Notes: generated by a model not told the origin, from the letters alone. A stretch of DNA of 64,000 nucleotides from a virus (IMGVR_UViG_3300047551_002812:1-64000), one strand, 5' to 3'; counted from the first letter of the stretch, positions 557 to 55,081 are shown. Program-made: numbers and translations.

Positions 557-1336
557 TCAGAGATCAAAGACTCTTTTCATAAACCATGCCTTGAACCTCC
601 GTCCCCAAGTCTTCCTTGGGGTTTTCTTTTGTTCGGTAGTAGTAGTGGAGGTATAAGTGTGCTGTTGAGGCTGAGATTCCAGTTCTGGCTCGTTTTTGAT
701 CTCCTCTAAGGCCTTACTGATGCAGGGGAACTGCTCCGAGAAGACCCCGGAGATGGCGTGGGCAATCTCCATGTGCTCCTTCTGGGTACCATTAGCCCCG
801 CGGAGATCGATGTAGTGCATCCAGGAACGTAGGGTGCCGGTCATGTAGATCCGACTCGGGGAGTTCATGGGTAGGACCTTACGAGCGCACTCTTTGGCGA
901 CTCCGGCCTCCAGCATGTCATCATAGAGTTCTTGGGCCTCGGCAAAGAGCATCTTGATTCGTTGCTCGAACGCTCTTACCAGCTCAGGGTCCAGATCTGC
1001 GACGGAATTCTGGCGGTTCTTGGTGTCCTGGCGACGGAGCTCCGGCAGTTGGACAGTTCCTAGATCCTTCACGTCGGCGTAACGCTGGGAGAACTCTTGG
1101 AAACTGAAGGAGCGGTGGCGGATGATCTGGGCGGCGATATCGCGGGTGGTATTGATCTCCACGCACATAGAAGCCATCTCGAACGGGCTCCAGTGGCGAT
1201 TCTTGATGAGGTACTTGATCAGGCGGGAGGCCGTGTCGTAGTTTCCTTGGTTCTTAGGTGCCGACACACGCGCCATATCGGTGATGAGATGCTCCGCCTC
1301 AGGAGTCACCCACATTAGTTTGACCAGTTGAGCCAT
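557..1336 (-). CDS. thyX: FAD-dependent thymidylate synthase ThyX
   Basis: ThyX signature RHRSFSFQEFSQRY, plus HWSPFE, KECARKVLP and LRSWMHYIDLR. Confidence 0.97.
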   Translation of the reverse strand: MAQLVKLMWVTPEAEHLITDMARVSAPKNQGNYDTASRLIKYLIKNRHWSPFEMASMCVEINTTRDIAAQIIRHRSFSFQEFSQRYADVKDLGTVQLPELRRQDTKNRQNSVADLDPELVRAFEQRIKMLFAEAQELYDDMLEAGVAKECARKVLPMNSPSRIYMTGTLRSWMHYIDLRGANGTQKEHMEIAHAISGVFSEQFPCISKALEEIKNEPELESQPQQHTYTSTTTTEQKKTPRKTWGRRFKAWFMKRVFDL

Positions 1337-5939: not shown

Positions 5940-7210
5940 TTCTCGGCGATGATCCCCCACCCTGTACCCATACCCTCCACCATCCATCTCTTGTTGAGAT
6001 TAGCGTAGGAGTAACGTTGGAAGGCACCATTTGTGGAACCGTAGTACCCACCGTTGACAAGATCCAACTCGCCGTATGGGTCGTGGACTATGTAATGGGC
6101 TTTATCCTTGTCGTAGCCTATGACGCACACCCAGTGACCACCACCACGCGGAGCGGATACGTGGCCGTGATGGAGAATGCCAATGGGGACCGGGATACCT
6201 TTGTCGATCTGAGCCTCTATATCGCTCTGGAAGAGGTTGGTTGCTTTGCTAGCTTTTATCCCCAGGTCGCGCAGGGCCTGGATCTGGGCGTTGGGATCCG
6301 TGGTGTCCCCGTACCTGAATACGTAATTTTTCATATAGTAGTCATCCTCCTGCTCCGCTACCTCGATGGCTTTAGGGTTGAGATAGTCCGCCATCATCGC
6401 GCACGAGCTGGAGAAGCACATGCGATTGGCGTGGGTAGTACGACTATCTCGCTGAGGGAAGTACTTGACCTGAAGTACCTTGTACTCGTCTGACTTGCTA
6501 TCAACTTCGCTGATACCCTGTAGTCTCCAGTGAGGATTGTATATGTACCAGGCCCCGGCACCGTAGTCAAGGATGACCTTGGAGTGGATCCCCTCGTCGA
6601 CAATGTCGGAGATCTGGTAACCCTTACCTTTCTGCACCGCCTTCTTCATGTTGAAGTCAAGCTGGTAGGATTGGAGTGGTTCCTTCTTAAGTAGGGTGTC
6701 CTGCAGGGCTACTATTTGTTGTTTTTCCATAGAGTTCTTTTTCAGACCTTTGGACCACAGGGCACCTTCCGCGATCCTTCGCCTCTTGAGTCCTTCCTCA
6801 ACGCTAGTCCCAGGGTTTCTGTAGAGTAGTAACGAGTCTGGGATCAGGTTCCATTCCTTGTTCCTCAGTCTTCTGGAGATGGTCTCGAACCCTTCGGAGC
6901 CGTAGAACCTCGCGCCCAAGTTATAGGCAAAACTGAGCAGGGCCCCTATCTGCTCCTGAGACATCTCTGACAGGTACGGGATCCGTTCGAGAGCGGGCAT
7001 ATATCCCACCTCGAGTTGGTAGAGAAGGAGCTCATCAGCCTCCTTCTGAGTTATCTCCTCGCCGGGAGAGAACGGGGACCCGTCCTTTTTAACCGTGGAT
7101 CCCCAACCGATCGTGTAGGGTTTACCGCCACTCAGCGGATCAGGGTAAGCCTTCAGGCGGCAACCCTCGAACCTCTTGATAAGATCAACACCGTAGGTAG
7201 GTGGTTTCAT
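5936..7210 (-). CDS. Endolysin: GH24 lysozyme plus C39-like peptidase
   Basis: LIKRFEGCRLKAYPD..TIGWG, ALLSFAYNLG, GLKRRRIAE; C-terminal QRD..CFSSSCAM, GGHW, VHDPYG. Confidence 0.9.
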   Translation of the reverse strand: MKPPTYGVDLIKRFEGCRLKAYPDPLSGGKPYTIGWGSTVKKDGSPFSPGEEITQKEADELLLYQLEVGYMPALERIPYLSEMSQEQIGALLSFAYNLGARFYGSEGFETISRRLRNKEWNLIPDSLLLYRNPGTSVEEGLKRRRIAEGALWSKGLKKNSMEKQQIVALQDTLLKKEPLQSYQLDFNMKKAVQKGKGYQISDIVDEGIHSKVILDYGAGAWYIYNPHWRLQGISEVDSKSDEYKVLQVKYFPQRDSRTTHANRMCFSSSCAMMADYLNPKAIEVAEQEDDYYMKNYVFRYGDTTDPNAQIQALRDLGIKASKATNLFQSDIEAQIDKGIPVPIGILHHGHVSAPRGGGHWVCVIGYDKDKAHYIVHDPYGELDLVNGGYYGSTNGAFQRYSYANLNKRWMVEGMGTGWGIIAEK

Positions 7211-7596
7211 TCTTCATCTTCTCCGTCCCCGAACACCGGGGGATAGTCACGCGCCTCGAACTTGACCCCTAGGATCTGATCTGATCCATCGATCTCCTCC
7301 ACCTCGGGGTGGTTAGGTGAGGAGACCATTAACTCCCGAAGTTTCTCCGGGATCAGTTCCTGGCTTTTTTCCGGTTCGTTTACCTTCCCCCACTGGGTAA
7401 GTTGACCTTTACCACCGGAGAGTTTACTCATATTACTGAGATGGTCGAGAAGCATCTGCTTCTGCGTTATCTCCAAGAGTTTCTCCTTTTTCTCCAACTC
7501 ACGCTTATCAATAAAACTGTTCAATCCGATCATCAAAGATAGTAATCCTAGACCCCAAGAAGAGAATACAAATATGTAAAGCAGTACTGCGGTCAT
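7207..7596 (-). CDS. Single-pass membrane protein upstream of the endolysin (lysis accessory candidate)
   Basis: N-terminal hydrophobic 27 aa; translationally coupled to the endolysin; late motif upstream. Confidence 0.6.
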   Translation of the reverse strand: MTAVLLYIFVFSSWGLGLLSLMIGLNSFIDKRELEKKEKLLEITQKQMLLDHLSNMSKLSGGKGQLTQWGKVNEPEKSQELIPEKLRELMVSSPNHPEVEEIDGSDQILGVKFEARDYPPVFGDGEDEE

Positions 7597-7667
7597 AGAG
7601 ACTCCTATGCTGATTGGTCTATGCTACTTTAAACTATGAGTCTGGATCTGTAAACCCTTCCTTGGTT

Positions 7668-8141
7668 TTATTTCAACGACTTAGCACCATTGCATCTCCA
7701 TTTTCTCCTGGAGAGGCACATTGGAGTGCTGCGATCGGGTCCGGAGCAATCCATACCCTCCGACTTCATATCCCCTAGCGAACGTGCGCAGTAGGAATCG
7801 CCACGTTTAGTCCCAGGAGCGATCTTATAACCCTTAGCCCCGTACCGAACCTTCCTCACCCTTCCGGTTTTTGAGTCTTTATACGTATGCGTATACTTCT
7901 TACCATCATCAGCGTAGGTGATGTTATTCGCCTCGTTGGAGGTTTCTGGACGTCCAGTAGCAACTGTCCTCCAGTACTCGTACTCATCCTCGGACATCTC
8001 GAGTTCGTCGTCAAGCATATCCGACTTGTCCTGGTCGCCGCGGAGATGGGACTCCTTTGTGATGGGTGGCCCGACCACCTCGCCGAATGAGGGATGAACG
8101 GACCAACCTTCGGGTAGCGTGAAATCAGTTTCTGTAGACAT
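7668..8141 (-). CDS. Hypothetical protein with basic C-terminal domain and N-terminal PEGW motif
   Basis: LPEGWSV; [22 protein letters not shown]. Confidence 0.75.
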
Positions 8142-21477: not shown

Positions 21478-21506
21478 AAAGAGAAAAGTCCCAGGTTATC
21501 TGGGAC
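21478..21506 (-). terminator. Terminator-like hairpin overlapping the helicase promoter
   Basis: Minus strand GTCCCAG-ATAAC-CTGGGAC-TTTTCTCTTT-ATG. Confidence 0.6.
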
Positions 21507-21525
21507 CATTATAGGATAGAAGCGG

Positions 21526-22806
21526 TCAGTCGTCGAGGACTGATACGAGAGATTTAAGATCCTTCACGATCGAGTCCTTAAGCTCCTTTAGTCTTTTGAT
21601 GGTTATTCTTAGGTCCTTGACGCATTTTTTATCGTCTTTCTCCTTGCACTTCGAGACCTGTTCGGTTTGCTCTTTGATCTGGAGTTTCAGATCCTCCTGC
21701 TCTACGACTAACTTCTTGCATTTATCGAACATCTCGAGTTCCTCCGCGACGCTGAGGCAGAGGGTCTTATTCTTCCCGCGCAGTTCCGGGTTGGAGTTCT
21801 CCAGTCTGACTTTCCTCGCTTTGGAGAGGAAGAACTGCTTCTCGTCGTGGTGGGTCTCTCCGATCTCTGGCATGAAGAGTCCCTTTGACCGGAGGAAGTT
21901 TCTCGCGGAGAGTAGGTGGTCTTCTCGATCGGACACTAGATCCGAGTTGAGAACCTTAGAGAGCGTCTTCGTATCCTCCTTGGTGAATCTCCACTCTGTA
22001 TCCTCGTTGTACAGGTCGAAGAACCTCAGCGGGGTCCCTGGGAGCAGGTTGTCCCCGGCGTCTCCTAAGTTCTCCTTGACTATGTAGCAACCGTACGCTG
22101 ACTCGATGACGAACTTGTCCTTTCTGAGGTAGTAGTCGCAGACCTCACGTTCCGACCGGAGTCTAGGTAGCCACGGACCGGTATTGGCCCACACGATGCC
22201 ATGTGAGTCGGACACCAGCCCCTGCCAGTCCCCGTCTACCGTGGAGAGGATGATCTGCCGCTGAGACAGTGGAGTACCCTTCCGGGCCTTACGCTTAAGC
22301 CTGCAGATATGCCCGGCTATATCATCCGCCTCGAAGAACTCTTTGGCGAAGTAGGGGAACGAGGAGCCCTTGGATAAGATGTACTCGTACCCCGCGGCCT
22401 CGGTGAGATCGAAGTGCGGGGTCTTCTCCCCTCGGCCGCCTTTGTACTCCGCCAGGTCAAGTTTGTGAGCCTCGATATGCCTCCAATATCCCACCCCAGT
22501 TGTCGAGGCTTCGGAGAACTCCGGATCGAATCGTCCCTTAAGGTCATCTACCACCACTCCGACGAACGGGAAAGGCCGGAGCATATCCGGCCCGCGATTG
22601 AGCTTATAGGCCCACATCGCCTTCATGATGGTTCTCAGTTCTTTCTCGTCTTTTGCAACTTCGGAGGCCAGTTGGGCGTACTTGTTGATCGCGTGGGCGT
22701 ACACCTTGAAGTCGATAACAACAACCGGGCAGTACGGATCGGTAATCGGCTCGAATACGTCCTCGAGTAGGGTGGAGGTGTGGTCGTATGAGGGAAGCGA
22801 TATCAA
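21526..22806 (-). CDS. 5'-3' exonuclease (PIN/FEN, T4 RNase H-like)
   Basis: YWR..YKGGR, FEADDIAG, TVDGDWQGL, GDAGDNL. Confidence 0.88.
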   Translation of the reverse strand: MISLPSYDHTSTLLEDVFEPITDPYCPVVVIDFKVYAHAINKYAQLASEVAKDEKELRTIMKAMWAYKLNRGPDMLRPFPFVGVVVDDLKGRFDPEFSEASTTGVGYWRHIEAHKLDLAEYKGGRGEKTPHFDLTEAAGYEYILSKGSSFPYFAKEFFEADDIAGHICRLKRKARKGTPLSQRQIILSTVDGDWQGLVSDSHGIVWANTGPWLPRLRSEREVCDYYLRKDKFVIESAYGCYIVKENLGDAGDNLLPGTPLRFFDLYNEDTEWRFTKEDTKTLSKVLNSDLVSDREDHLLSARNFLRSKGLFMPEIGETHHDEKQFFLSKARKVRLENSNPELRGKNKTLCLSVAEELEMFDKCKKLVVEQEDLKLQIKEQTEQVSKCKEKDDKKCVKDLRITIKRLKELKDSIVKDLKSLVSVLDD

Positions 22807-23639
22807 TTCGCCACCTCCATGCGGACGGAGGGATGGGACTCGTAATTGATGATCTCGAAGTCGGTCTCTGGATCTAGGTCGAAGATGTTCTTCTCGTTGT
22901 TGATCCAGACATCACAAGCGGACATGGGTACGTTCTTGATGATGGACTCGATCGCCATCTCGTTCTGGGAGTAGATGTGGTTGTTGGCCGAGGCGAACAT
23001 CACGAACCGAGGTACGAGATTAGCGTCTTGGGCCATCTTGGTAGTAAGAAGGCCATAGCGGAACATATCCAGAGGTACTCCGGTGGCCATGTCATTACTC
23101 CGCGCGTTGACCATCAGATCAAGATAAGTCCCATCGCTAGAAAACACGAGGTTAGGATGACAAGGAGGGCAGTGAAGAGAATCGTAAGAAGGATTGAAAG
23201 TCTGAAGCACCAACTGGCGATTGGTCGGGTTGGTTCGGAGTTGCTCCCAGATCCACTTGAGTTGGTCGAATGGCGCATTACGAAACTTCTCCCACTGCAT
23301 ACTCTGCTCTGGACAGGCCTGGGGCCAGGATCGCCAGGAACGCCCGTAGGATCCCGCGAGACGGCCCTCGGTATCCGCCAGAAAGTCCCAGAAGTGCTTA
23401 GCGGGACCGAGATTCGTGACTCGGTAGTCCCCGTTGACATCCCACATGAACTCTCGGAAGAGGTTACGCACGGGCATCTTGCGGAGAGTGAGAGCGGGAA
23501 ATCCCTCCCGAAGGTCGATCTTGATGGTCTGGCCGAACATCTGCTTATAGCGGAGATTATTCCGACCGACAACCTCGGTTCCCTCGGTCAGGATCTCCTT
23601 GGCGATCTTGATGTACTGGTAGTCAAATGGCAGAGTCAT
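22803..23639 (-). CDS. Thymidylate-synthase-family enzyme, predicted dCMP methyl/hydroxymethyl-transferase
   Basis: FPALT, PPCH (C160), RSNDMATGVPLD with Asp191 at the E. coli ThyA Asn177 position, HIY. Confidence 0.85.
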   Translation of the reverse strand: MTLPFDYQYIKIAKEILTEGTEVVGRNNLRYKQMFGQTIKIDLREGFPALTLRKMPVRNLFREFMWDVNGDYRVTNLGPAKHFWDFLADTEGRLAGSYGRSWRSWPQACPEQSMQWEKFRNAPFDQLKWIWEQLRTNPTNRQLVLQTFNPSYDSLHCPPCHPNLVFSSDGTYLDLMVNARSNDMATGVPLDMFRYGLLTTKMAQDANLVPRFVMFASANNHIYSQNEMAIESIIKNVPMSACDVWINNEKNIFDLDPETDFEIINYESHPSVRMEVAN

Positions 23640-23691
23640 GGTCTCCCTTGATGAATGATTTGATTGTCATTCTATCATGGGTAGGAACCGA

Positions 23692-23934
23692 TCACTGAAT
23701 GTCGAAATATTTTTTAACTAGTAGTTTTTGGAGCTTCACGAACTTGCGGAGGGGGTAGTCGTACTCCATCGCCCACTGGAGGAGGGAACGGCTTCCCATC
23801 TCCACGAGGTCCATGTCCGGATCTTCCGCTATAACATTCTCCTTCGCTACGAAGAATTTTTCACCGTCGCGAGCCACGACGAGCCATGGGATCTGCTTGT
23901 CAAAGCGGATCGGTTTTGAGATTCTTTCGATCAT
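23692..23934 (-). CDS. Hypothetical protein
   Basis: 80 aa ORF in the coding direction. Confidence 0.65.
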   Translation of the reverse strand: MIERISKPIRFDKQIPWLVVARDGEKFFVAKENVIAEDPDMDLVEMGSRSLLQWAMEYDYPLRKFVKLQKLLVKKYFDIQ

Positions 23935-23973
23935 TATGTATTTAAGTCGGTGTTTGGTTGCTAAGAACCACGT

Positions 23974-24270
23974 CTACGCTTCTCTAGCTTTATTCACGTC
24001 CTTAGCGGTTTTTGCTGCGTTTAGTCTCTGAATCTGTCGAGGATCTACGCCCCCAAGGTCCTGTTTCCATCTCTTCCCGGAGGAGTTCGCAGCGTTCAGG
24101 CCCGGGGATCCTTTCGGAAGGCAGGTGTTACCGGATTTTGTAGAACCCGGAGGGCATTTTAGCATTACTTTGCCTTTGTAGAAGATACGATCGGCGTAGT
24201 CGTACGTTCCATCCTGGCGTTTCTTTCTCAGGATTTCCATGTAGTCCTGCGCCGAGAGTTTCCTTTCCAT
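23974..24270 (-). CDS. Small basic late protein with CPPG..TCLP minidomain
   Basis: 98 aa; GTTTAAAG 22 nt upstream. Confidence 0.7.
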   Translation of the reverse strand: MERKLSAQDYMEILRKKRQDGTYDYADRIFYKGKVMLKCPPGSTKSGNTCLPKGSPGLNAANSSGKRWKQDLGGVDPRQIQRLNAAKTAKDVNKAREA

Positions 24271-24292
24271 CGTTAAGTTTATCCTCCAAGAT

Positions 24293-24345
24293 CTTTAAAC
24301 CAGAGATTTTCGGTCTAAAGAACTTCAGACTACATCATCATACCA
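24293..24345. promoter_or_regulatory. Divergent promoter region: GTTTAAAG (-), GTCTAAAG (+), TGGTATGAT (-)
   Basis: Motifs at 24293-24300, 24313-24320 and 24337-24345. Confidence 0.65.
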
Positions 24346-24346
24346 T

Positions 24347-25564
24347 ATGACTAAGTACACTCACGGGCACATCATCCCCTTGGTAGGGGGGAGCGTGGTG
24401 GGAACCTCCCTCGCTCTCCGCTCCGATCCCCAGTGGATCGCGTCCTGGGGAAGTGTATTCGGAGCGAATGACCGGTACTGCCTGCAGTACATGGAGAAAG
24501 TACCGTTTTACGATTTTGAGAAGGAACAGTCTCCATCCTCCTACGTAGATATAGTAACCTCCTTACCACCCTGTGCCGGCCTGTCGATGGCAAATACCAC
24601 TTCTGGGGACGCAGTCAATAATCCGCGTGGGTGCTCCGCCCCGAGTAACATACATATGTACAACGCGGCGGAGTTCGCTATGTCGAAGATAGGACCCAGG
24701 GCCATGATGGTCGAGAACGCCCCGACTCTCTACTCGAAGATGGGAGAGGAGTTCGCGGAGAAGATCAACACTCTGGCCCAGAGTCACGGGTACGTCATGA
24801 GTCTGGTAAAAACAACCTCCATCAACCATGGGGTCCCGCAGGAGAGGACGAGGAGCTTCTTCTTCCTGTGGAAGGGTGACAGGGTGCCGGTTCTCTCCCC
24901 GATCAAGAGGGACTTCGTTCCCTTCCACCAGTTCCTGAAGGAAGGTCGATTCGCTAAGTCGGAGTCGGTCTCTAAATCCAAGAAGTTCCCGAGCGAGGAT
25001 CCGCTGTGGCAGTTCATCGAGTCGAAGTACGCTGGCTGCACCAAGCAGGATGTCCTCTCCCGGGTAGCTTCCAAACGTATGACATCCACCTGGAACGTTA
25101 TATACGACTCCGGATGGCTGGAGGAGGCCGCGAGAGTTGTCAAGGACGAGAAGGCGAACCGTTGGCTCAATTACACCCTGGAGAAGAAGAGAGCTGGTAA
25201 GAATATCATGGACGGGAGCATGAAACTCGCGTGGTTTAGGACCCAGAGCCTGATGTGGAAGAGTCTCCCGTACCTTATGCACCCCCACGAGGACAGGTGG
25301 CTCACGGTAGCGGAGGGTCTGGGACTGATGGGATTCCCCGATGACTACGCGGCCAAGGTCTCCATACCCACGAAGCATAGTAACGTGATCTGCCAGAACG
25401 TTCCAGCCTGCACCGCTGGGGATTGGGTGGGGGAGATCGTTGAGGCTCTGGATGGAAATAGGGAATGGATCGAGCCGGAGAGGAATCCCGATGGTAGTTA
25501 CAGAATCCTGAGGCAGAACAATACTGCCTCTAAGAATCCGATGGAACCACTCTGGTCAGTGTAG
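24347..25564 (+). CDS. Divergent DNA (cytosine-5)-methyltransferase-fold protein
   Basis: Motif IV PPCAGLS, VI VENAP, VIII GVPQERTR, IX RWLTVAE..LMGFP, X CQNVP; motif I is IPLVGG rather than FxGxGG. Confidence 0.85.
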   Translation: MTKYTHGHIIPLVGGSVVGTSLALRSDPQWIASWGSVFGANDRYCLQYMEKVPFYDFEKEQSPSSYVDIVTSLPPCAGLSMANTTSGDAVNNPRGCSAPSNIHMYNAAEFAMSKIGPRAMMVENAPTLYSKMGEEFAEKINTLAQSHGYVMSLVKTTSINHGVPQERTRSFFFLWKGDRVPVLSPIKRDFVPFHQFLKEGRFAKSESVSKSKKFPSEDPLWQFIESKYAGCTKQDVLSRVASKRMTSTWNVIYDSGWLEEAARVVKDEKANRWLNYTLEKKRAGKNIMDGSMKLAWFRTQSLMWKSLPYLMHPHEDRWLTVAEGLGLMGFPDDYAAKVSIPTKHSNVICQNVPACTAGDWVGEIVEALDGNREWIEPERNPDGSYRILRQNNTASKNPMEPLWSV

Positions 25565-26047
25565 AGAGTAGTTATACTGCTGCCACTCCGGGTCGTTTGT
25601 CTGGGAGATAGTGAAGGTGATCTTACTGATCGGAGCGGCGGGTTTTCTTAGTAGTCTCATTCCGGTATGCTCCAAGAGTTTGTCGCTCTTAAGGGTGTTG
25701 CACCTGCTACAGGCTACCACTAAATTCTGCCAGGTGTCCTGCCCTCCTTTGCTTTTGGGCAGGACGTGGTCTATAGTCAGTTTTCTGGTGGCTCCGCAGT
25801 ACTGGCATTTATGCCCGTCTCTTTTGTAGATCATTGATCTGGATGGTTTGGCTTCCATCATCTTAGAGACGGGTATCCGTACGTACTCGACGAGACGTAT
25901 GACCCTCTCGGAGATTATCTTGGCCTTCTCCTTGACGAGGAGAACTATAGCTCTCTTCCAGCTCGTGATGTTTATTGGTTCGTAGGTAGCGTTTAAAACT
26001 AGAACCGACGACTCCGGCCTAATCCCCCATCGAGTTTCCTGTGCCAT
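25556..26047 (-). CDS. HNH endonuclease (McrA-like)
   Basis: VLVLNATYEP, RDGHKCQYCG..TIDHVLPKSKGG..WQNLVVAC..CN; ATG at 26047 preferred. Confidence 0.92.
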   Translation of the reverse strand: MAQETRWGIRPESSVLVLNATYEPINITSWKRAIVLLVKEKAKIISERVIRLVEYVRIPVSKMMEAKPSRSMIYKRDGHKCQYCGATRKLTIDHVLPKSKGGQDTWQNLVVACSRCNTLKSDKLLEHTGMRLLRKPAAPISKITFTISQTNDPEWQQYNYSLH

Positions 26048-26195
26048 CGCAATACTCGCACTCCTGTACTTCGTTAGGTTCGGCGTAGCCCTCGGGAGAG
26101 GTGTGAGTGATGATCTTGAAACCCCTCCCGTCGCAGTAGGCACATCTGTTGTACTCTATCTGCTCTATCAGTCTCTGGACTTTTTTCTTTGTCAT
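26019..26195 (-). CDS. Small DnaJ-type zinc-finger protein
   Basis: CAYCDGRG and CEYCDGTG (CxxCxGxG x2); ATGA overlap with the upstream stop. Confidence 0.7.
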   Translation of the reverse strand: MTKKKVQRLIEQIEYNRCAYCDGRGFKIITHTSPEGYAEPNEVQECEYCDGTGNSMGD

Positions 26196-26653
26196 GTGGT
26201 CAGGGAGAATTTCGCGGAATCGCACTCTCCACGCAGTTCCTTCGAGGGATCGGACGGTGCTGACTCCGTACCATTGGTGATGTGGTCCTTACGTTTCGAG
26301 TTGTAGTTGAGTTTTTTGGCGGCGATCTCGGCGAATTCCTTTCCACTAACTCCGGCGTACGCTAGAGCGGCCCTGTGGAACAGGAGCACGTCGAACATCT
26401 CAGCGATAAACTCCTCCCGGTTCTCTCCGGAATCCAGGAACGAGGGCTCGTTGATCTTCCAACTACGCCGGGGAACGTACACGCGGGCCTCGATAACCTC
26501 CTCGATGAGATGTCCGAGGTGCTCGATGACCTTGGCGTGGCGTGTGTCCCTGGAGATATCCTCGTCGAGAGGGCCGGGTTGTCCGGCCGCCCCGGCGTAC
26601 TTCTGCTGGGAGGCGTACCCGTCGTCGATAAACTGCGCGTAATCAAAACTCAT
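26192..26653 (-). CDS. All-alpha NTP pyrophosphatase (dimeric dUTPase / T4 gp56 dCTPase-like)
   Basis: EEVIEA..RRSWK..EMFDV..KKLNYNSKR. Confidence 0.8.
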   Translation of the reverse strand: MSFDYAQFIDDGYASQQKYAGAAGQPGPLDEDISRDTRHAKVIEHLGHLIEEVIEARVYVPRRSWKINEPSFLDSGENREEFIAEMFDVLLFHRAALAYAGVSGKEFAEIAAKKLNYNSKRKDHITNGTESAPSDPSKELRGECDSAKFSLTT

Positions 26654-26680
26654 TGGTTCGGTGTAAGTAGATGAGATCTA

Positions 26681-26689
26681 ATTCTATCA
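26681..26689 (-). promoter_or_regulatory. Sigma70-type extended -10 TGATAGAAT
   Basis: Representative copy. Others: 1362-1370, 19577-19585, 23669-23677, 28644-28652, 30367-30375, 31989-31997, 55110-55118 (all -) and 47664-47672 (+). Confidence 0.8.
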
Positions 26690-26705
26690 CGGAGAAGGAC
26701 TTACA

Positions 26706-28622
26706 TCAACCCTCGCAGGCTGCGCACTCCCCGTACTGTTTCTCCGGGGTGCCGATCCTCTCCGCCAGCTCAGTGTACCCGCCGATGTGGTGTCCGTTGA
26801 TCCAGATCTGGGGCACTGTGCGGTAGGGAAACTCCTGGTCGGGTACGTTGACCCTGTCGATCTCCTCGATCGTGTAACCTTTAGACCTCAGTAGTGATTT
26901 TGCCATGGTGCAGTACGGGCACGTCTCCTTGGTGATGATTTTAGCTACCCTCGAAATTGTCTCCAGTTTCTTACGTTTCACTAGGAGCGAACTGCTCTTA
27001 AGATAGTAAAGTGACTTTAATCCTCCCTTCCATGCACTCAGGTGGAGTCTGAAGAGGTACTCGGGAGAGGATTCGGGATCGACGAAGAGGTTGATGGATT
27101 GTCCTTGGCAGACGAATGGTTGACGATCGGAGGCCTGTTTGATTATCTCGAACTGATCGATCTCCCTCGCCGTCTTGAATACTTCCTTGGCGTGTTCGTC
27201 TAGGAAGTCGAGATGCTGTACCGATCCTCGGAACTCCAAGATCGACTCCCAGGTCTCCTCGGTATTGCGCCCGATCCGCTCGAGATGCTCAACCAGGTAC
27301 TTATTCTTGCGTACGAAGGTACCCTTGGCCTGTTTGGCGACGTAGTAGTTAGCATCGATGGGTTCGATACCCTCACTTCCAGCACCGCAGATGACCGAGT
27401 TGGATTTGGTGGGGGCGATCGCCATCAGGTGCGTGTGGCGGAGACCGGTACCCTGGCACCACTCCGGCTCCCCGTAGGTAGTGGCCATGTCGCGAGAAGC
27501 CTTAGTGGCCTTCTCCTTGATAAACCTGTGCATCTCTACGTTAAGTTGGCGGGCCTCCTCAGAAGCGAATGGTAGGTTTTTGGACTGATAGAGAGCGTGA
27601 AGACCCATGGTCCCGAGACCCAATGCCCTGGACTTGCGAGCGAAGCGAACAGCTCTACCAAGCGAGGTGAGTCGTTCGGCCTTGTGGCAGAACTCCTCCA
27701 CCACAGCATCGAGTAAATAGATCGCCAACTCTGGCACGGTCTTGCCAGTCGCTGGACCCTTCCAGTCCTTCCACTCCTCCCACCGTGAGAGGTTCAATGA
27801 GGAGAGTACGCAGACAAAAGTATGACTCTCGTCGGTGTGAAGAAAGATCTCGGAACAGAGATTGCTGAGTTTAACACTGAGACCACGCTGAGTGTAGCAC
27901 TCCGGATTGGCCTTATTGGCATTGTCGATGAAGATGATGTACGGTGACCCACTGATCATCCGAGCCTTGAGCACCTCACCAAAGACCTTCTGCTTCTCCC
28001 TGTCGCCCCTGAGCATACTCTCCACCCACTCGTCGGTGACAGTCACAGCGATGTTACTGTCGATGAAGTCCCTCGGATCGCCCTGGGAGTGGTCCTTAGA
28101 ACGTAGGACTTCGGGTAGATCGGGGTGGTCGATGGGAAGATAGAGAGCGAAACTTCCGCGCCTCACGCCTCCCTGGGAGACTACGGAGGCACACTGGTCG
28201 TACTGCCTCATCCAGGGTACGACCCCGGTGCTCTTACCACCGGAGGAGATAGGGGCTCCTGAGGGACGGATATCCCCGAAGTACGTACCGACTCCACCGC
28301 CATGCTGGGACAACGCCGCGGACTCCTTCAAGTGCGAGTAGATCGATGGCACGGAGTCGTAGAGATGGTTGGAGTAGCATGAGATCGGAAGTCCGCGTGA
28401 GGTGCCGAAATTACTAGCCACCGGAGTAGCCGGCCCGAGAAACCCCCGCCAGAGAATCTCGAATACGTCCCGTGAGAGTTCAGGGTAGTTAAGTAATTTT
28501 GCGGACTGATTCGCGATCCTCTCGTACATCCCTCTTGGGGTCTCCCCCTGATAAAGGTATCCACGAGACAACGTGTCGATGGCCTCCTTAGTCATCCATT
28601 CAGGTACTTGAAGTTCTGGCAT
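26706..28622 (-). CDS. nrdA: Class I ribonucleotide reductase alpha subunit with glutaredoxin domain
   Basis: PISC, SNLCSEI, CVLSSLN, AIAPT, KSLYY; Grx CPYC..TVPQIWING..IGGY; terminal CAACEG. Confidence 0.95.
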   Translation of the reverse strand: MPELQVPEWMTKEAIDTLSRGYLYQGETPRGMYERIANQSAKLLNYPELSRDVFEILWRGFLGPATPVASNFGTSRGLPISCYSNHLYDSVPSIYSHLKESAALSQHGGGVGTYFGDIRPSGAPISSGGKSTGVVPWMRQYDQCASVVSQGGVRRGSFALYLPIDHPDLPEVLRSKDHSQGDPRDFIDSNIAVTVTDEWVESMLRGDREKQKVFGEVLKARMISGSPYIIFIDNANKANPECYTQRGLSVKLSNLCSEIFLHTDESHTFVCVLSSLNLSRWEEWKDWKGPATGKTVPELAIYLLDAVVEEFCHKAERLTSLGRAVRFARKSRALGLGTMGLHALYQSKNLPFASEEARQLNVEMHRFIKEKATKASRDMATTYGEPEWCQGTGLRHTHLMAIAPTKSNSVICGAGSEGIEPIDANYYVAKQAKGTFVRKNKYLVEHLERIGRNTEETWESILEFRGSVQHLDFLDEHAKEVFKTAREIDQFEIIKQASDRQPFVCQGQSINLFVDPESSPEYLFRLHLSAWKGGLKSLYYLKSSSLLVKRKKLETISRVAKIITKETCPYCTMAKSLLRSKGYTIEEIDRVNVPDQEFPYRTVPQIWINGHHIGGYTELAERIGTPEKQYGECAACEG

Positions 28623-28725
28623 CTGGTAAGAGTTGGTAGGTTAATTCTATCATTGGGTATTGCAAAGTCACCCTGTGAGTAACATAGTATTACTCCAAGG
28701 TAGGTTGGTATGGTCTGACTAAGCG

Positions 28726-30336: not shown

Positions 30337-30384
30337 AGGACCGGGAAGTACTGCGGAAAGAGTTCTATTCTATCACAGATCACG

Positions 30385-54520: not shown

Positions 54521-55081
54521 TTAAACCATGTGAGCGAGGGAGGAGTCCTTTGATGGGGAGATGACTTGGATATCGGTCAGAAGCGAACGATGGGAGAGGT
54601 AGTCGCACATATACTTGTAGTACTCTCGGTGCTCCTTCTCACGAGCTTTTAACTGCGTACTCACGAAATACTCGGAGCAGCCCGGGTGAAGATCCTTGAT
54701 CTCTTCGATGTGAAATGGCCTGGACCACTCCCACGATCTGCGTACGAGGAAGACCTTTATCTTGGAGCTGTAGGCTGCGAAAAACGACTCCGCGGAGTTA
54801 GCCCACTCCTCCGAGATGCTGATGTTCCTTCTGAACCGCTCGTAGAAGCACACCTCGGAGAAACCACGATCACAGATAACCACCTCGGCTTTTTCCTCCA
54901 GAGCGGACTGGAACGGATCGATGTACTGCTGGATCGGGGAGTGGTGGTGGGGTTGGGGTCCGAAGAAGTGGAGGGAGCGTACACAGATGTCCTTGGACAC
55001 TAGGTCTTTTTTTGTATTTTCCACGAGGGTGGACTTGCCGACACGATCGGCTCCGAGCACAACGATAGTCTTCGGACGCAT
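54521..55081 (-). CDS. Deoxynucleoside monophosphate kinase (dTMP-kinase-like)
   Basis: P-loop GADRVGKST and ICDRG; extended -10 promoter upstream. Confidence 0.78.
   Translation of the reverse strand: MRPKTIVVLGADRVGKSTLVENTKKDLVSKDICVRSLHFFGPQPHHHSPIQQYIDPFQSALEEKAEVVICDRGFSEVCFYERFRRNISISEEWANSAESFFAAYSSKIKVFLVRRSWEWSRPFHIEEIKDLHPGCSEYFVSTQLKAREKEHREYYKYMCDYLSHRSLLTDIQVISPSKDSSLAHMV

Follow-up and report, generated by a model that had tools for sequence, protein, structure and literature searches.

In T-even phages, in phage Xp12 and in many metagenomic examples, phage homologs of the thymidylate synthase (TS) ThyA that carry Asp at the position of Escherichia coli Asn177 divert deoxycytidylate (dCMP) to a modified nucleotide of the DNA, so that the kind of enzyme considered here is already known. 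The Asn-to-Asp specificity switch was established by mutagenesis (E. coli N177D; L. casei N229D) and today serves as a routine guide in predicting dCMP enzymes of phages; of seven 5-methyl-dCMP synthases predicted in this way five were confirmed experimentally, as was the Xp12 enzyme (PMC8670742; bioRxiv 10.1101/2024.12.05.627091). In the pyrimidine hydroxymethylases an Asp or Glu three residues before the catalytic Cys (position -3) activates water; the D145N mutant of the T4 enzyme is inactive, and MilA also has Asp here. These enzymes are without the C-terminal tail that in TS seals the folate site for hydride transfer. A further change, D169N, is the mark of the flavin-dependent 5-hydroxy-dCMP synthases (PMC13326640). 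Here we analyze a ThyA-like gene and its candidate partners in the first 64 kb (IMGVR_UViG_3300047551_002812:1-64000; the window) of a 79-kb IMG/VR virus contig with an estimated completeness of 49%. The window is a fragment of a TIM5-like cyanomyovirus. To judge from its sequence, the ThyA-family enzyme very probably acts on dCMP instead of deoxyuridylate (dUMP), and the phage probably makes 5-methyl- or 5-hydroxymethylcytosine nucleotides for its own DNA.

The four open reading frames (ORFs) named in an earlier note on this DNA, for the ThyA-like enzyme, the flavin-dependent thymidylate synthase ThyX, a pyrophosphatase and a kinase, are all present on the minus strand where that note had placed them (Table 1). 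The ThyA-like protein matches PF00303 (Thymidylat_synt) with an E value of 3.4e-55 and 187.5 bits (curated cut-off 24.3) over profile positions 2-265 of 266, and it aligns to solved thymidylate synthases from residue 8-9 to residue 277 of 278. It shares 80% identity with a protein of S-TIM5, and of the related phages S-TIM54, S-TIM61 and S-TIM66, that bears the annotation 'ThyA'. A gap-free alignment of RSNDMATGVPLD to RSADVFLGVPFN / RSCDVFLGLPFN, on which HMMER and MAFFT agree, puts Asp191 on E. coli Asn177, which confirms both the residue and the codon given earlier, and the catalytic Cys160 corresponds to E. coli Cys146. In the E. coli numbering, used from here on unless noted, Glu58, Tyr94, Arg166, Ser167, Asp169, His207 and Tyr209 are found as well. 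The PCH motif, Trp80, Tyr94 and TS-like C-terminus read by the earlier note are likewise in place, the tail HPSVRMEVAN aligning to the final residue of TS. BLASTP bears out the view that the protein is closer to the reductive ThyA enzymes than to T4 gp42 (E 2e-38 for E. coli ThyA versus 4e-5 for gp42); the Xp12 enzyme lies at 1e-19.

A search of 5.8 billion proteins returned 101 relatives of the ThyA-like protein. Asp177 is invariant in the more than 90 members of its clade, which range from 92% down to 36% identity; the next group outside the clade (27% identity) has Asn at this position and a fully canonical active site. Throughout the clade Cys146, His147, Glu58, Trp80, Tyr94, Arg21, Arg126, Arg166, Ser167, Asp169, His207 and Tyr209 are kept, as is the M(E/D)VAN ending at its exact length. 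The clade-wide changes relative to canonical ThyA are Asn177 to Asp, Trp83 to Leu, Leu143 to Cys, Arg127 to Gln, Ile79 to Phe and Phe176 to Leu. At position -3 the window enzyme has Cys, which gives way to Thr or Ile in a few members of the clade; since the position tolerates all three, it does not hold a catalytic acid. The window protein has Ser at the position of E. coli Val93, where close relatives have Ala and where the alignment register differs from that of T4. In a maximum-likelihood phylogeny against ThyA, gp42 and the dCMP methylases, a comparison that the earlier note had suggested, the Asp177 (TIM5) clade is monophyletic with support of 99/99 and stands apart from both T4 gp42 and the Xp12-type clade; the validated Xp12 enzyme groups instead with L096 (95/86). 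The deep branches of the tree give no resolution and fit either one or several origins of Asp177. Another large clade, of Asn177 homologs on metagenome contigs of up to 160 kb (L062, L065-L107), is TS-like apart from an unusual active site, with Gly for Arg21, Ala for His147, Ala for Gly173 and Trp for Phe176.

Asn at position 177, by which a canonical dUMP-specific TS is recognized, was found neither in the window protein nor in any clade member. The window also encodes a canonical ThyX, as the earlier note had stated; its translation contains the RHRxxSxxxxSxR motif and has a full-length Pfam match. With ThyX in the same genome, a second enzyme making thymidylate (dTMP) would be redundant. 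Taken together, the invariance of Asp177 in a dedicated clade, the published specificity switch and the presence of ThyX make a dCMP-directed function the best reading, and they uphold the division of labor with ThyX that had been proposed.

The residue signatures also bear on the product. The window enzyme carries the full Xp12-type set, namely Asp177, Asp169, a non-acidic residue at -3 and the C-terminal tail. The T4-type hydroxymethylase has an acidic residue at -3, which is Cys in the window enzyme, and is without the closing tail, which the window enzyme keeps. SPO1 gp29, a third hydroxymethylase lineage that we checked directly, resembles T4 gp42 in having Asp at -3, and it too is without a TS-type tail; in gp42, gp29 and MilA this tail is absent or replaced. 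The invariant Asp169 (no D169N) rules out a 5-hydroxy-dCMP synthase of the RB69 gp48 type. The combination of Asp169, a non-acidic -3 residue, the TS tail, Trp80 and His147 makes reduction of the methylene by hydride transfer the most probable outcome. By these intrinsic features the window enzyme appears to be much like a natural N177D thymidylate synthase, and it should reduce the methylene to give 5-methyl-dCMP. We weighed the intrinsic features somewhat above the genomic context because they are consistent over three independent hydroxymethylase lineages. On balance we give a methyl product about an even chance, while a hydroxymethyl product is possible and some other product rather unlikely.

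In the scheme that we favor, Cys160 would attack C6 of dCMP while Asp191 would read the N3/N4 face of the cytosine (window numbering for both), and a one-carbon unit from methylene-tetrahydrofolate would be added at C5. The exocyclic methylene would then be reduced by hydride transfer to yield 5-methyl-dCMP, as with the Xp12 enzyme. ThyX would make dTMP, and a MazG/DCTPP1-like pyrophosphatase is the candidate for lowering deoxycytidine triphosphate (dCTP). The modified dCMP would be phosphorylated, for which the thymidylate-kinase-like protein is the candidate, and incorporated during replication, where it may replace cytosine to a greater or lesser extent. The scheme as a whole, with the methyl product, seems to us about as apt to prove right as wrong.

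Several observations weigh against a methyl product. S-TIM5 encodes a homolog of the T4 DNA alpha-glucosyltransferase (alpha-GT; L002:1453-2733, S-TIM5 6754-8034; PF11440, E 2e-9, 37 bits against a cut-off of 25), annotated 'DNA alpha-GT' by the S-TIM5 authors. The T4 enzyme (PDB 1y6f, 2.3e-14) is its sole solved relative, and the two are most alike in the N-terminal (acceptor-side) domain. The gene is kept, in the synteny gyrase-AGT-psbA, in each of the three TIM5-like genomes that reach into this genome end (S-TIM5; G001, L026, 5948-7216; G004, L025); other large TIM5-like contigs end before it. It was not found in the window's contig, a fragment without that genome end; the contig is a partial genome, so genes of the opposite end are not assessable in it. 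An alpha-GT requires a hydroxyl acceptor, which 5-methylcytosine does not have, and neither S-TIM5 nor the window contig has a match to PF12851 (TET/JBP) at E 0.1 or better, on which ground a TET-mediated route to 5-hydroxymethylcytosine was rejected. Moreover, reductive methylation releases one dihydrofolate per cytosine, and no dihydrofolate reductase (DHFR) was found in the complete S-TIM5 genome or in the window contig, nor a FolA-type DHFR (PF00186) in any of five genomes of picocyanobacteria (Synechococcus from the sea and Cyanobium from fresh water, the likely host kin). All five of these genomes (G006-G010, behind L172, L136, L123, L164 and L161) have ThyX and none has ThyA; which enzyme reduces dihydrofolate in them is not obvious. 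The alpha-GT homolog and the absence of both TET/JBP and DHFR favor hydration to 5-hydroxymethyl-dCMP, which regenerates tetrahydrofolate. The ThyA-like protein would then be a new type of dCMP hydroxymethylase, needing no DHFR, whose product would be incorporated and subsequently glucosylated by the T4-like alpha-GT as in T-even phages. Two of the clade-wide changes, Trp83 to Leu and Leu143 to Cys, could let water into the active site, and the window protein has Ser at the Val93 position, which the T4 structure paper equates with the catalytic Ser94, the partner of the catalytic Tyr in T4. However, this Ser alternates with Ala in close relatives, there is no Asp or Glu at -3, the residue without which the T4 enzyme is inactive, the closing tail is kept, and the acceptor of the alpha-GT homolog is putative. 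A hydroxymethylase is thus a possible but lesser prospect. The preference of the earlier note for methyl over hydroxymethyl agrees with the published signatures at -3, Asp169 and the tail, but runs counter to the alpha-GT homolog and the lack of DHFR.

A C5-cytosine methyltransferase-fold protein, encoded on the opposite strand 700 bp from the ThyA-like gene and in every TIM5-like locus covering the region, bears on the extent of substitution. DNA that is fully C5-substituted would leave a classical C5 methylase without a substrate, so that either the substitution is incomplete or the protein acts otherwise; its conservation argues against complete replacement of cytosine. Its motifs IV (PPC), VI (ENA) and VIII (QERTR) are intact, but the S-adenosylmethionine-binding motifs I and II are degenerate throughout the lineage (HIIPLVGGS for FxGxG in motif I, Ser for the acidic residue of motif II), and a sequence comparison with the PDB gave no match at E 0.01 or better, so that methylase activity is itself uncertain. 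With this gene and a dCMP deaminase, encoded by each of the five large TIM5-like genomes, it could be supposed that 5-methyl-dCMP or 5-methyl-dCTP is mainly deaminated to thymidine nucleotides, as is documented for 5-methyl-dCTP to dTTP in Xp12-type phages, or that substitution is partial, and that cytosine methylation in the virion is mostly post-replicative. This is improbable, as ThyX already supplies dTMP and the S-TIM5 deaminase is cited as a structurally characterized dCMP deaminase; the deaminase would rather feed ThyX. More improbable again is an ordinary thymidylate synthase, redundant with ThyX, in which Asp is tolerated. The full TS architecture, closest characterized relatives that are genuine thymidylate synthases, and the annotation 'ThyA' or 'thymidylate synthase' in the S-TIM5 records and at JGI all speak for it. 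Yet Asp177 is invariant over a deep clade with Asn in the flanking groups, the change is published as a switch to dCMP, both the phage and the host kin that were sampled have ThyX, and no DHFR (of the FolA type in the kin) was found. It is conceivable, though doubtful, that TIM5-like cyanophages carry hypermodified cytosine made by an undescribed route, either through a hydroxymethylase without the known hallmarks that feeds the alpha-GT, or through 5-methyl-dCMP that is further processed in the DNA by the methyltransferase-fold protein and the alpha-GT.

For the favored scheme, in which dCMP is methylated before replication, the two candidate partners identified by the earlier note were examined by sequence and by structural model. 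The pyrophosphatase ORF has no Pfam match and a weak PHROG match to nucleotide pyrophosphohydrolases. Its AlphaFold2 (AF2) model (predicted local distance difference test, pLDDT, 88.7) has as best PDB matches the mouse and human dCTPase DCTPP1/RS21-C6, then MazG-like proteins, with Z about 9, a value within the range of helical-bundle background (for such bundles, values under 13 may be background). All of the top 33 VIA matches belong to one superfamily (MazG-like, DCTPP1, PRA-PH, dimeric dUTPase; Z 5.9-9.1), which is marked by a four-helix core with EExxE and ExxD metal-binding residues, and the metal ligands E51-E52-x-x-E55 and E81/E85-x-x-D88 are invariant in 22 homologs. The earlier description as gp56-like therefore holds for the fold and the superfamily but is not supported by sequence, no significant link to T4 gp56 being found (BLASTP E 0.55; hhalign probability 7.3%). 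Pyrophosphatases of the MazG/PRA-PH type recur beside Asp177-type TS genes in cytosine-modified contigs. The background-range Z value and the missing link to gp56 count against a role in the pathway, as does the frequency, for unrelated reasons, of MazG-like proteins in cyanophages. The kinase gene lies 31 kb from the ThyA-like gene. Its product has the P-loop GADRVGKST and a D71-R72 pair that is invariant or nearly so, and in Foldseek its AF2 model (pLDDT 96.4) is closest to thymidylate kinases (E about 3e-6, probability 1.00), deoxynucleoside kinases and PPK2. By sequence, neither the pyrophosphatase nor the kinase matches the PDB at E 10 or better. A thymidylate-kinase-like enzyme is, from its modeled fold, a sensible candidate for phosphorylating a 5-methylpyrimidine monophosphate, and its place in the pathway is plausible on that ground only.

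The earlier note had also assigned the four genes to one extended -10 promoter class. The exact 9-mer TGATAGAAT occurs four times, each copy 30-39 nt upstream of a nucleotide-metabolism gene, where about 0.5 copies are expected by chance (128 kb, both strands); the related sequences TGGTAGAAT and TGGTATGAT lie upstream of ThyX and the kinase, respectively. Thus, the motif or a variant does precede all four genes. However, it also precedes the ribonucleotide reductase genes, so that it marks nucleotide-metabolism genes generally and is not the private regulon of these four.

Table 1. Features of the ThyA-like locus and of the related genes and motifs in the window
Feature	Coordinates	Strand	Basis or remark
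ThyA-fold enzyme, 278 aa, predicted dCMP C5 one-carbon transferase	22803..23639	-	PF00303; key residues; alignment to solved TS
Asp191 codon, aligned with Asn177 of E. coli ThyA, the residue of pyrimidine specificity	23067..23069	-	gap-free alignment; position computed from start at 23639
Canonical flavin-dependent thymidylate synthase ThyX	557..1336	-	PF02511 2.5e-45, 155 bits; RHRSFSFQEFSQR motif in translation
MazG/DCTPP1-like all-alpha nucleoside triphosphate pyrophosphohydrolase, candidate dCTPase	26192..26653	-	phrog_12184 1.6e-5; AF2 model; structure matches
Thymidylate-kinase-like P-loop kinase, candidate (modified) deoxynucleoside monophosphate (dNMP) kinase	54521..55081	-	phrog_761 2.8e-7; P-loop; AF2 model
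C5-cytosine methyltransferase-fold protein	24347..25564	+	PF00145 9.3e-17; phrog_116 3.9e-26; possible rival or complementary route to C5-modified cytosine
HNH endonuclease	25556-26143	-	PF01844, 3e-15; between pyrophosphatase and methylase-fold gene
Ribonucleotide reductase large subunit NrdA	26706..28622	-	ORF; S-TIM5 ortholog annotated NrdA; synteny; same nucleotide-metabolism block and promoter motif
Flap-endonuclease-like ORF	21526-22806		TTG start in ORF list
TGATAGAAT extended -10-like motif	23669..23677	-	38 nt upstream of ThyA-like start
TGATAGAAT motif	26681..26689	-	36 nt upstream of pyrophosphatase start
TGATAGAAT motif	28644-28652	-	upstream of NrdA
TGATAGAAT motif	30367-30375	-	upstream of 331-aa ORF starting 30336 (NrdB position in S-TIM5)

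By position the contig corresponds approximately to S-TIM5 85-162 kb in reverse orientation. The gene order around the ThyA-like gene (NrdA, the pyrophosphatase as a small ORF, HNH endonuclease, C5-methylase-like gene, two small ORFs, ThyA, flap endonuclease) is identical in S-TIM5 and 18 metagenomic TIM5-like loci (19 loci). The place of the HNH endonuclease is kept in all TIM5-like loci that cover the region, which is unusual for a mobile homing-type gene. The flap-endonuclease-like ORF and the stop of the ThyA-like gene share 4 nt (22803-22806), an overlap also present in S-TIM5, which suggests translational coupling. A scan of viral contigs returned close TIM5-like loci only. A metagenome scan with P0078 as query gave no match; a second metagenome scan returned TIM5-like loci, short contigs of distant clade members and an unrelated Asn177 clade. 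The TIM5-like phages in culture are of Red Sea origin, and phages of this type are widespread but rare in the oceans. Public sequencing runs from several studies in which the region 21500-28700 is found nearly intact are labeled as freshwater, aquatic and reservoir metagenomes; judging from these runs, fresh water is a further habitat of TIM5-like phages.

Modified bases determine which of its host's restriction and CRISPR defenses a phage can evade, and they bias the recovery of viruses by some library and sequencing methods. If the DNA of these phages is substituted with 5-methylcytosine or glucosylated 5-hydroxymethylcytosine, both the counts of TIM5-like phages and the action of picocyanobacterial defenses would be affected. 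If true, either version of the hypermodification outlined above would give cyanophages their first modified-cytosine system, by an enzymatic solution that is new. As a natural Asn177Asp thymidylate synthase with His147 and the closing tail retained, the enzyme is a useful test of the residue code for methyl, hydroxymethyl and hydroxy products. The conflict between the methyl and hydroxymethyl readings is the part worth an experiment, and it is directly testable since the isolate S-TIM5 exists. The literature searched, which did not include the original S-TIM5 paper, contained no statement on DNA modification in TIM5-like phages, nor did it report a cyanophage in which cytosine is replaced before replication.

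Among the known systems with which the window enzyme can be compared are canonical ThyA and the Xp12 TS homolog, the dCMP 5-methyltransferase of a phage whose DNA is fully 5-methylcytosine. The canonical thymidylate synthases are the closest characterized sequences (28-30% identity, 2e-38) and agree with it in all core residues of catalysis and of the folate site and in the exact length of the C-terminus; six clade-wide substitutions, Asn177 to Asp among them, set the window enzyme apart. With Xp12 it has in common the ThyA fold, Asp177, Asp169, the tail, a residue at -3 that is not acidic (Asn in Xp12 and Cys in the window enzyme) and the predicted role as the first step of a pre-replicative cytosine replacement. 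The two are only 25% identical (E 1e-19), however, and belong to separate clades, with Pro at position 147 in Xp12 and His in the window enzyme. Beside the Xp12 gene there are a dCMP deaminase and a DHFR, and ThyX is not annotated in the stretch of Xp12 examined, whereas the TIM5 lineage has ThyX and the alpha-GT homolog and no DHFR. T4 gp42, which works with the dCTPase gp56, the dNMP kinase gp1 and the alpha- and beta-glucosyltransferases, shares Asp177, the RSND motif and the catalytic Cys/Glu/Tyr set, and the logic of a pathway with a pyrophosphatase and a kinase is the same, as is the occurrence of a T4 alpha-GT homolog in the TIM5 lineage. At 21% identity (E 4e-5), gp42 differs in Asp145 at -3 (Cys here), in Thr at 147 (His here) and in having no C-terminal tail. 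Its partner gp56 has no detectable sequence relation to the window pyrophosphatase, and T4 gp1 is not among the best structural matches of the kinase. The 5-hydroxy-dCMP synthases RB69 gp48 and DLP3 gp80, flavin-dependent ThyA homologs that feed glycosylated cytosines, also have the ThyA fold and Asp177, but carry the diagnostic D169N and L143E, where the window enzyme has Asp169 and Cys143. Mammalian DCTPP1 and the MazG-like enzymes are the best structural matches of the pyrophosphatase (Z about 9, root-mean-square deviation 3.3-3.8 over 100-111 residues) and share its EExxE and ExxD residues, but at 14-18% identity; the window protein is without a Pfam match and has an extra C-terminal segment. 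What is new here is an Asp177 clade, the third and distinct from the others, in which His147 and the TS tail are kept, its occurrence in phages of picocyanobacterial hosts, and the combination of the enzyme with ThyX, an alpha-GT homolog and an odd C5-methylase-fold neighbor, and with no DHFR.

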